From Escherichia phage PMBT16, in sequence record PP554575: a stretch of 64,000 nucleotides of DNA; one strand, written 5' to 3'. Shown one piece after another: positions 26,063 through 28,526 of the stretch (the stretch's first letter is position 1; every line of letters starts with the position of its first letter). Under the pieces are notes generated by a model. That model worked only from the letters and a program-made list of their open reading frames with translations. It was not told the origin of the DNA and did not search any database. The translations under genes and the position numbers were made by a program.

Positions 26063-26671
26063 GTCCGCTATTCTCACACCACAAACGGCCCCGCCTGACA
26101 AGTGGAATAACCAACAAGCCAGCAATTGCCCACACTGTACAAACATACAGGTAAAAATAACTATTGCATAATCTTTCATCTTGTGGTAGCAGGGCCATTT
26201 TTACCCGTTTTCTCCCTCAAAATTGCACGTAATGCCGCTATTGCACAAATTTTAACCTGATGCAGATCTTCAATATCTTGTCAACAAATAAAAATTCTTA
26301 TAAGTCATACACTTACATAACCACAAAAGCGCGTTCTACGTGAAAAATCGAGTATAACTATAGCCGCCAGATCTCAGAATTTACGTACGCTTACCATTCT
26401 ATAGTCTGCTAAGTATTTATTCCAACCACAGAATAACGGAATAGTCAATACCTGCATAAAATAATTATTCGTGTAAACTGCATAACATAAATCAGCTCAG
26501 GTGTCAACATTTTTCGTAAACAGTCCGAAATTATCACGATGAGTTATCATAAACAGAGAAATCTTTAGTCGTCTAATGTTTACTGTACATTACTATACTG
26601 ACTGGAATCATTAGATGACTAAGAGAAAGATAAGAAATAATTAATAATGTAATTATTTTACCTGTAACAAT

Positions 26672-26847
26672 AAGGCAACTATGCAAACGAATGGCATGGC
26701 GCGACGGAGTCGCGACATAATATAAAAGCAGTAACCATCACCCCCGTGATAGTTTGTCTGCAAACTATTAATCAGATCATAGTTGCCTTGTATTTAGTTA
26801 ATCATGACATAACAAGCAAGGCAACTATAGATCTGCTAATAGTTGCC
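26672..26847. repeat. iteron-like cluster: GGCAACTAT x4 in both orientations, including palindrome GGCAACTAT-N10-ATAGTTGCC
   Basis: Copies at about 26674, 26779 (rc), 26820, 26839 (rc). Confidence 0.6.
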
Positions 26848-26974
26848 CTGCTTTTATATTATGTCATAGGAACGCCCGAAGGGGTGACCTAGTCACCTGG
26901 CATAGCCAGCGAAAGATTATTAACTTGTCGATTGTTATCTTGTTAATTGTTTTCATGCAAACGAATGGCATGGC
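26682..26974. repeat. 19-bp perfect direct repeat TGCAAACGAATGGCATGGC (26682-26700 and 26956-26974)
   Basis: Two identical copies 274 bp apart in non-coding DNA. Confidence 0.6.
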
Positions 26975-27060
26975 TTATCATCTATGCGTGAACAGTGAGG
27001 CATGCAATAGTAACAATTGTTATTGTATCCAGTGTGTTGAGTATGCCCAGTGTGTCACTA

Positions 27061-27088
27061 TTATGTCATATTATGTCACAGTATGTCA
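27061..27088. repeat. three tandem 10-bp phased repeats (TTATGTCATA / TTATGTCACA / GTATGTCAGA)
   Basis: TATGTCA at 10-bp spacing; further TTATGTCAT copies near 26859 and 26804 (rc). Confidence 0.55.
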
Positions 27089-27615
27089 GACAAGTTTTTC
27101 TCCTCTTTGTCAAGTGCTGCATGAAAAATTTACAAACTGGTATGGTAGCATTTTTGCGGCCCTGTTTACATTCAGTAATGTATGTATAATCCTTGTTGTG
27201 TGGGCGTTTAGACGTCTAGACGGTTGGAAGTCCACAGGTCAATATCTAATCTATCGGCTGCTAACTATATCCCACACAAATAGTAAGAAATATGATTGTT
27301 ATATGCGTAAACTGTAACTCATGTTATCAATCCCTGTATGGATCGCCAGTGGTGCGCATAATGGGTATTATGTTAAATTGCCCGTAATGATAAAGGTTCT
27401 CACAATGATAGGTATTCTCATTCACCCTCACAAAATAGATTGCAAATGTTGTGCCACTGTGTGAACGGCCTCACCTATTAATTTGCCTCACTGCCTCGAT
27501 ATTTGAGAATTATTATAAGAATGAGAAGTATTCCCATTCCGTCCGCCTGGCAGCACTCCAGTCGCTACCGCTCATGACAGGGCAGAACTGGGTCCATTCA
27601 GATATTTCTGACTGA

Positions 27616-28224
27616 CTCTTCAGGTCTGTGTGGGAAAAGACAACCTCTCCGGCGGGACAGGGGGATATCTGAGGAGAAATTGCAGGTCAATTAAAAAATT
27701 TACGTGGTGTATGAAGCGATCTTCAGGCAAGGTATGTATTATGGGATGAAACCCTCTTCAGGCAATGATATTTGTGGGTGTGATATTTGCTGGAAAGCCA
27801 GATATGACGGGACTCCCGGCGGGGCAGGGGTAGTACAGACAGGGAAAATATGGGGATGTAGTTGGGTAAATTGATCAGACAGGTAGAGTATGGAATATGT
27901 TACAAGTATGTTAAATATGGAGGGTGAATATCTGTAGGATTTGTGTGTAAAATCAAAGACTTAAGCGGTGCTGTGGTATTTTCTATAAATAATTCAAGTT
28001 TAATAGGTGATATTTGTCTCTATCCACTTTGTGTGGTAAACAGATTCAGATGATATTGGTTTACAAGTGTATACATAATATACAAATTAAAGATACAAGA
28101 AACCCCCCTCCCCCCTTCGGCTACCATTCACCTTTTCCTCTGACTGGTACTTAAACACTTATTCAGACTCTTCAGGTTATCACCCATATACCATATGGCA
28201 GTGACTGGTGTCCTCCGGCCCCTC
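27616..28224. repeat. dispersed direct repeats (TCTTCAGG x4; CTCC(C)GGCGGGRCAGGGG x2; TTGTGTG-type x4) and C6TC6 tract
   Basis: TCTTCAGG near 27616, 27720, 27755, 28168; long repeat at 27647-27664 and 27813-27830; C-tract near 28103-28116. Confidence 0.55.
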
Positions 28225-28371
28225 TTTCGTCACCCGTCCGCTTCGCCATGCTAATGCCATAGCCAATGGTTCGGTTGTTCACCCTGTTCACTCAGGTGTA
28301 TCTCCATACCCCTTCAAACCGAAGAGAACAGAAAACCCGAATTACTCGGTAAAAGAAAAGAGAAGAACTTA

Positions 28372-28399
28372 ATTTTATCAGGATAGGCAAGAATGTCAA
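28372..28399 (-). promoter_or_regulatory. putative leftward sigma70-like promoter (TTGACA-N16-TAAAAT) firing into the gene-free region
   Basis: Minus-strand hexamers; 8-bp inverted repeat CATGACTG/CAGTCATG at 28401-28433 just upstream. Confidence 0.3.
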
Positions 28400-28526
28400 G
28401 GCATGACTGCTCACCAAACAAGCAAACAGTCATGTGTGGGAGGTAAGTGATTGTGGTGGTAGGAAATTTAGTTGAAAGATGTGTTATAGGTGCTCCCAGC
28501 ACTTTAGCCGGGTAGCTAATTGTGTG

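Follow-up and report, generated by a model that had tools for sequence, protein, structure and literature searches.

A 64,000-nucleotide stretch of Escherichia phage PMBT16 (sequence record PP554575; hereafter the window) contains an untranslated interval, 26019–28526, between two convergent gene blocks. We conclude that this interval is very probably the junction of the two physical ends of the Vequintavirus chromosome, displayed in a collapsed, circularized assembly that was opened at another place, and that these ends are of the T7 type: fixed, and carrying a direct terminal repeat (DTR). A first-pass annotation, made from this one genome, had offered a replication origin, a packaging site (pac or cos) or a terminal-repeat junction, and had judged none of them assignable from sequence alone. 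That judgement was fair for a single genome, but comparison with the records of relatives does assign a terminal repeat. The terminal-repeat junction stands, with 459 bp present at both ends, whereas the iteron origin, the pac site (the ends are fixed and conserved) and the cos site (there is a repeat) do not.

The feature is real and biologically important. The main point is largely an ordinary one that is recorded for close relatives: GenBank records and two papers already place a 459-bp DTR here in Vequintavirus. The only part with some novelty comprises a sub-terminal palindrome, a cut-site motif and a 342-bp conserved block, of which the searchable literature gave no description.

The window comes from a Vequintavirus, an rV5-like E. 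coli myophage. In BLAST searches the interval and its flanks are 88–95% identical to about 120 GenBank records, and the comparison with related phages that the first-pass annotation had proposed proved decisive, as the ends of the relatives map to 27089 and 27547. In distant-mode BLAST, several relatives' records break off inside the query, and they do so recurrently at the same two sites. In both HdK5 and Gotham the first 459 nt of the record recur exactly as its last 459 nt, the prefix starting at window position 27547 (minus strand) and the suffix ending at 27089; in these two phages the same sequence stands at both ends of the virion DNA. The Pr121LW record opens at 27089 and ends at 27088, and the revised record of bov10K2 opens at 27547, that is, at the DTR boundary. 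Record ends from four laboratories fall at exactly 27089 or 27547, 459 bp apart: unique, reproducible positions and not those of a permuted population. From these record ends and the prefix–suffix identity it follows that the window contains the 459-bp DTR once, at 27089–27547.

Three relatives carry an annotated DTR (Gotham, MT682716; HdK5, MK373780; EdH4, MK327930), and the homologous sequence is 92–95% identical to the window, with both boundary sequences shared. Korf et al. reported 458-bp terminal redundancies in EdH4 and HdK5 (PMC6563267). Dias et al. described Gotham as having 459-bp terminal repeats and a unique packaging start, with a method that seeks doubled coverage (PMC7471380).

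The left cut site, taken from the record ends of Gotham, HdK5 and Pr121LW, reads TATGTCA/GACAAG (the slash marks the cut), and the right one reads CCGTCCGCC/TGGCAG, also given as CCGTCCGCC/TGGCAGCACTCC. The two cut motifs are 459–460 bp apart in 16 of 17 genomes, and the exception, CM1, has a duplication. We took the anatomy of the interval and its diversity values from a 15-genome alignment. The DTR is moderately diverse (π ∼0.06; 90–95% identical in 68 of 119 records), and its length is fixed while both arms are full of indels. Nowhere in the region is the DNA more variable than where it touches the two DTR boundaries.

In Shigella phage CM1 (MK962749) the exception takes the form of a perfect 523-bp tandem duplication, window 27025–27547 twice, with an edge exactly at 27547. 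This is probably the untrimmed terminal redundancy of an assembly. The duplication (4589–5634 of the CM1 stretch examined) is annotated with open reading frames (ORFs), and phage I29 (ON286975) has an apparently similar extra copy.

Features of the interval between the convergent gene blocks, in window coordinates
Feature	Position	Strand	Remarks
Left untranslated arm	26019–27088		Sub-terminal DNA beside chromosome end 27547 (window + orientation); no conserved ORF
Terminator-like hairpin	26038–26054	+	7-bp stem with 5 G-C pairs, then a T run; closes the + gene block
Two perfect 20-bp direct repeats	26681–26700, 26955–26974	+	Bracket a 274-bp segment
Nested palindrome, 152 bp	26714–26865		Closed by an 18-bp perfect inverted repeat, 26714–26731 / 26848–26865
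Hypervariable short-repeat array	26969–27068		Adjoins the left DTR boundary; diversity 0.25–0.46; many indels
Three phased TATGTCA units	27059–27088	+	10-bp period; last unit ends at the left cut, TATGTCA/GACAAG
DTR	27089–27547		459 bp; single copy in the collapsed assembly; at both ends of virion DNA by homology
Central DTR island (GGTGCGCATAA..TATTATGTTAAAT)	27344–27381		Sole stretch detectably conserved across three genera
Right untranslated arm	27548–28526		Sub-terminal DNA beside chromosome end 27089; no conserved ORF outside the invariant block
Variable array	27548–27718		Adjoins the right cut site; GGCAGCACTCC-like units; 50-bp indels; diversity up to 0.20
Ultra-conserved non-coding block (UCE-R), 342 bp	28099–28440		Includes the C6TC6 tract 28103–28115; diversity 0–0.026
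Sigma-70-like promoter match, the region's best	28372–28399	−	TTGACA, 16-nt spacer, TGaTAAAAT; 11/12 plus extended −10 TG; faces the DTR

The same architecture is found beyond the genus. For Klebsiella phage KPP-1 (Mydovirus) a DTR of 514 bp has been published, with 2× coverage and a PhageTerm call of the T7 type (PMC9862379). Like the window, KPP-1 has convergent gene blocks separated by ∼1.8 kb of non-coding DNA with the DTR in the middle, related boundary sequences and a conserved central island. It differs in that its opposite arm is only 334 bp long, with no counterpart of the 342-bp block, and in that no overall DNA similarity is detectable by BLAST at E ≤1e-5. In the E. coli phage A5-4 (proposed Septuagintavirus) the syntenic position is a gene-poor gap of ∼2.1 kb, in which the exact left DTR boundary could not be placed. 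The boundary sequences resemble those of KPP-1, one end having GRCGGACRG and the other CTTGACAARGAG..TGT; A5-4 reads GCC/TGGCAGCA.

Searches with blastn and nhmmer for homologues of the arms in other genera recognized only the central DTR island and the boundary motifs, in addition to the shared architecture. The island matches KPP-1 and A5-4 at E 5e-4 and 2e-4 in blastn, and at E 0.006 and 0.019 in nhmmer. A search of IMG/VR for divergent loci, through the 87-aa protein that flanks the interval, returned two near-identical contigs only. In Seunavirus and Certrevirus the locus could not be located by flanking synteny, and a conserved 101-aa gene is not syntenic there.

The palindrome of the left arm lies in a conserved block (26669–26868; π 0.005–0.03) and holds an internal hairpin (26733–26754) and three of the four GGCAACTAT sites of the interval. 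Its folding z-score is −8.5 as DNA and −8.85 as RNA, and a sliding-window scan of the region found strong folding at the palindrome alone. Five of its seven variable sites are unpaired, and the other two compare with about five expected in paired positions. A 33-bp insertion in the apical loop is tolerated in rV5 and A135. Multi-branched palindromes occupy the same arm in both other genera, in KPP-1 over 206 bp (21-bp closing inverted repeat, 100% complementary; z −11.1) and in A5-4 (21-bp closing inverted repeat, 90% complementary; z −5.8). Moreover, the closing stem bears at its outer ends the motif of the left cut site, and the stem and cut motifs change together: the Vequintavirus stem carries TATTATGTC and its cut follows ..TATGTCA, whereas the KPP-1 stem carries TTATTGTGTC and its cut follows ..AATTGTGT.

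The longer form of the TATGTCA unit, TATTATGTY, is found five times in 64 kb (1.46 expected), always inside 26714–27374: at the left cut site, inside the DTR and at both outer ends of the palindrome.

Phage FV3 has lost this palindrome. It keeps one copy of the 20-bp direct repeat and cleanly lacks the 274-bp segment between the copies, whereas its sister SYGMH1 retains the segment; FV3 therefore carries a deletion, and the segment is dispensable for growth. Next to the palindrome lies a hairpin-rich mini-element of ∼50 bp (26866–26915), which some relatives share, some lack and some have replaced. A sequence with about 85% similarity to it exists at one to three copies in small E. coli plasmids and also in a phage-like plasmid of 39.6 kb with a gene for a tape measure protein. 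Inserts of a similar kind, containing GCATAGCC, lie at other places in rV5, A135, SYGMH1 and navn.

The right arm holds the second conserved element, UCE-R. It is at least 97.4% identical in 117 of 117 records and at least 99% identical in 33, whereas the adjacent 342 bp of coding DNA are just 80–95% identical in 76 of the 117; UCE-R is more conserved than the neighbouring genes. The promoter-like site that it contains, read from 28399 to 28372, is conserved within the genus. We found no equivalent promoter pointing into the junction in A5-4 or KPP-1.

Such conservation, together with the strong promoter-like site, would suit one or more unrecognized non-coding RNA genes, either as a UCE-R transcript started from that site or as a structured RNA of the palindrome, whose z-score of about −8.9 as RNA and whose variable sites, which avoid paired positions, point the same way. 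We nevertheless consider this explanation unlikely. The fold z-scores of UCE-R are only −0.9 and −0.4, which is no thermodynamic RNA signal, and the block has no Rfam match, coding signal or counterpart in other genera. Across the region, the Rfam 15 covariance models reached best scores of 16–20 bits against thresholds of 50–107 (E 1.4–8, in a search up to E 10). Like any DNA palindrome, the one in the left arm folds equally well whichever strand is taken, and it shows no compensatory changes. A literature search found no transcript or transcriptome data for rV5-like phages.

A replication origin, which we regard as distinctly improbable, could take two forms: iterons bound by an initiator, or priming through an R-loop from the conserved right-arm promoter. 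In the R-loop version, transcription from 28399–28372 would place G6AG6 in the transcript (28115–28103) and then enter AT-rich DNA (28098–27960). Indeed, the region's strongest sigma-70-like promoter faces a G-run followed by DNA of 28–32% GC, the block that contains it is ultra-conserved, and the arrangement resembles both the T7 origins that are associated with promoters and the G-rich CSB II block of mitochondria. In T7, an origin of the promoter-associated kind lies near the right genome end. However, the combination of promoter and G-tract is not conserved in A5-4 or KPP-1, and in KPP-1 the tract is on the other strand.

The iteron form begins from repeats that are dense and non-random, and it shares with plasmid origins and phage lambda ori the clustering of short repeats in AT-rich non-coding DNA. 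The first-pass annotation had read the GGCAACTAT sites in this way. That reading fails, because the sites run 26674 (+), 26779 (−), 26820 (+) and 26839 (−), forming inverted pairs that build the palindrome, and do not give at least three regularly spaced repeats of the same orientation, as the tandem same-sense repeats of iteron origins would. Between 22968 and 29190, DnaA boxes are absent even when one mismatch is allowed. No initiator gene is adjacent, the flanking genes being small and matching no Pfam family. FV3, moreover, has lost three of the four GGCAACTAT sites with the whole palindrome, so the cluster is dispensable. Cumulative GC skew, a check that the first-pass annotation had recommended, does peak here, but a maximum is terminus-like and not origin-like, and it is confounded by transcription direction.

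Against fixed ends with a DTR, the main dissent comes from literature calls of permuted or headful genomes. PhageTerm output of 'circular permutated' was reported for the bov phages (PMC8407724) and headful packaging, also from PhageTerm, for BpE1AUH (PMC13211470); both conflict with the DTR-bearing record ends. Further points weigh on the same side. The ends of this isolate are assigned only by homology to relatives, the terminase gene lies outside the 64-kb window, and TATTATGTY is absent from the right cut site. The palindrome, being lost in FV3, is not essential for end processing and is at most auxiliary.

A headful pac site, from which genomes would be packaged by headfuls with partly permuted redundancy, and which would make the 459-bp repeat an assembly artefact, draws on those two PhageTerm reports. 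We hold it to be very unlikely. The records of four laboratories end at the same two coordinates, and the bov10K2 record, as revised, itself opens at one of them. The 2×-coverage method assigned fixed terminal repeats to Gotham, the repeat is invariant in length between variable flanks, and KPP-1 has the same arrangement, with doubled coverage over its repeat and a DTR call from PhageTerm. A cos site was rejected: in place of cohesive ends with no terminal duplication, a 459-bp duplex duplication is found at both record ends. Least credible of all is a non-functional spacer of decayed genes or junk that accumulated repeats between convergent operons, for although the interval lacks ORFs, has many indels and hypervariable arrays and is partly dispensable in FV3, two of its blocks are far more conserved than coding DNA, the DTR is fixed in length and the same architecture recurs in three genera, a conservation pattern that therefore excludes junk DNA.

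The repeats themselves are as the first-pass annotation had listed them. All are present at or within 1–2 bp of where it had placed them, and they are non-random (five copies of GGCAACTAT in 64 kb, where 0.52 would be expected). The direct repeat was correctly found but is one base pair longer than the 19 bp it was given. TATGTCA starts at 27062, 27072 and 27082, with the 10-bp phasing described; these are the innermost units of the left array, whose GCGTRAACAGT- and TGTCA-type units vary in copy number. The 7-mer as such is not enriched in the window (12 copies, 10.4 expected). In the right array, likewise made of short units that vary in copy number, π reaches 0.20 at 27569–27618. The C6TC6 tract was also confirmed, as were the two copies of CCGGCGGGRCAGGGG (27649 and 27816) and the four of TCTTCAGG (27617, 27720, 27755 and 28169).

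Some of these motifs extend beyond the interval. TCTTCAGG occurs 12 times in the window, always on the plus strand, against 2.2 expected, and eight of the copies lie outside the interval, mostly in the minus-strand gene block; a CCTGAAG-type motif recurs in the junction region of KPP-1 too. DnaA-box-like 9-mers (TTATCCACA, at most one mismatch) number 32 in the window against 19.4 expected. A motif resembling the rV5 late promoter, TGGTAAAATA, was considered and rejected: it has a single copy with one mismatch, at 26654–26663 (−), and its position varies among relatives.

The description of the interval as a gene-free region between convergent blocks was borne out. Plus-strand genes stop at 26018 and minus-strand genes at 28527. 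Between them are 23 ORFs of 34–130 aa. For 18 of these, five or more of the 14 aligned relatives have a disrupted version; the remaining five are intact in relatives and lie either within the DTR or in near-invariant DNA. The strongest coding candidate (54 aa, 28208–28372) has zero homologues among 5.8 billion protein clusters. The region contains no tRNA or tmRNA genes and no Chi sites. Nor do the arms mirror one another, as the best left/right alignments in a search for inverted symmetry score below the mean best score of shuffled sequence. The right arm has no E. coli match, and the left arm matches solely through the 50-bp mini-element. The site equivalent to the terminator-like hairpin is an annotated terminator in the HdK5 and Gotham records. 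In the rV5 genome paper the region is drawn as a 'non-coding' box (rV5 104013–106618), and a change in GC/AT skew at 104425–105475 is ascribed to transcription direction.

Base composition differs strongly from strand to strand, locally, in both arms. The outer part of the left arm (diversity 0.03–0.14) is C-rich on the plus strand across 26050–26550, and GC skew in the right arm climbs to +0.78 at 27850–27949 and then falls to −0.57 at 28100–28199. Read-through RNA from either block would be C-rich and G-poor in places (plus strand 26050–26550, minus strand 27600–28050), which, we speculate, would suit Rho-dependent termination before the junction.

The genes around the interval deserve brief mention. 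Among the products encoded in the window are a DnaB-type primase-helicase and a family A DNA polymerase, together with a DNA ligase, NrdA and NrdD; the window therefore covers the replication and nucleotide-metabolism portion of the genome. Most relatives have an extra 420-bp gene (140 aa; navn_130, rv5_gp159) between the last plus-strand gene and the non-coding region. It is absent from the window (insertion point 26018–26063), nimi, SYGMH1 and FV3. A 'Rel homology domain' is noted for its product in the Pr121LW record, and in several records the gene itself carries a fifth GGCAACTAT site. On the other side, a 101-aa protein (30124–30429, minus strand) is 100% identical in nearly all Vequintavirus records, matches no Pfam family and has homologues of 42–60% identity across Vequintavirinae. 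It is labelled a transcriptional regulator or dsDNA-binding protein in some records, and we regard it as a candidate binder of the junction repeats. Among the genomes retrieved, 19 unannotated GenBank records flagged UNVERIFIED (MG0656xx) carry the label 'Campylobacter phage' but are genomes of Vequintavirus; probably the host was mislabelled or the preparation was contaminated.

Most of the roughly 120 public Vequintavirus records were opened arbitrarily, and in them the region either carries no annotation or is occupied by small, spurious ORFs. Knowledge of the true ends and of the 459-bp repeat matters for genome annotation, for rebooting and engineering broad-host-range therapeutic phages and for reading PhageTerm output. 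For the cis signals that direct DTR-type packaging in a large myovirus, the palindrome and the invariant block of 342 bp offer concrete candidates; so far this mode of packaging has been worked out mainly in T7-like podoviruses.

How might a terminal-repeat junction of this kind work? On the reading preferred here the virion DNA is linear with fixed ends, starting at 27089 (GACAAGTTTTTCTCC...), running around the map and ending at 27547 (...CCATTCCGTCCGCC) in the plus orientation of the window, so that 27089–27547 is carried at both ends as a direct repeat. The two convergent blocks are transcribed outwards, toward the chromosome ends. Where the ends and the repeat lie, and how they are conserved, is shown by the comparison; the cycle that follows is inferred. 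A T7-like replisome (the primase-helicase with the family A polymerase) would copy the linear genome, and head-to-tail joining through the DTR would yield concatemers with one repeat copy per junction. Terminase would cut at the two fixed sites, TATGTCA/GACAAG and CCGTCCGCC/TGGCAG, and DNA synthesis would duplicate the repeat, giving each packaged genome a copy at both ends. TATTATGTY may be the recognition element of an end-processing protein, and the palindrome may correspond to the inverted repeat that forms a hairpin at the concatemer junction of T7. More tentatively, and with real doubt, we suggest that the sub-terminal arms carry undescribed cis-acting machinery for handling the ends, in which the palindrome shared by three genera would be a hairpin intermediate for duplication of the DTR and the 342-bp block would be recognized by terminase, act as an origin primed by an R-loop or encode a novel RNA.

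The closest known system is the concatemer junction of T7. The 160-bp repeat of T7 is flanked by arrays of short repeats, and an inverted repeat near the right end gives rise to a hairpin end, a proposed processing intermediate. The T7 origin studied by Chung and Hinkle in 1990 is promoter-associated, lies near the right end and was reportedly needed for the packaging of junction plasmids. The two systems differ in several respects: the phage described here is a myovirus of ∼137 kb with no known phage RNA polymerase, its repeat is 459 bp and not 160 bp, the genes on both sides are transcribed toward the ends, there is no sequence similarity, and the palindrome is dispensable in FV3. Nevertheless, they share fixed ends, a short exact terminal repeat, of which each junction holds or would hold one copy, and short-repeat arrays on both sides of it. 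Both also have, in one arm and at a distance of a few hundred bp from the repeat, a large inverted repeat, as well as a promoter that faces the junction and a replisome of the T7 kind.

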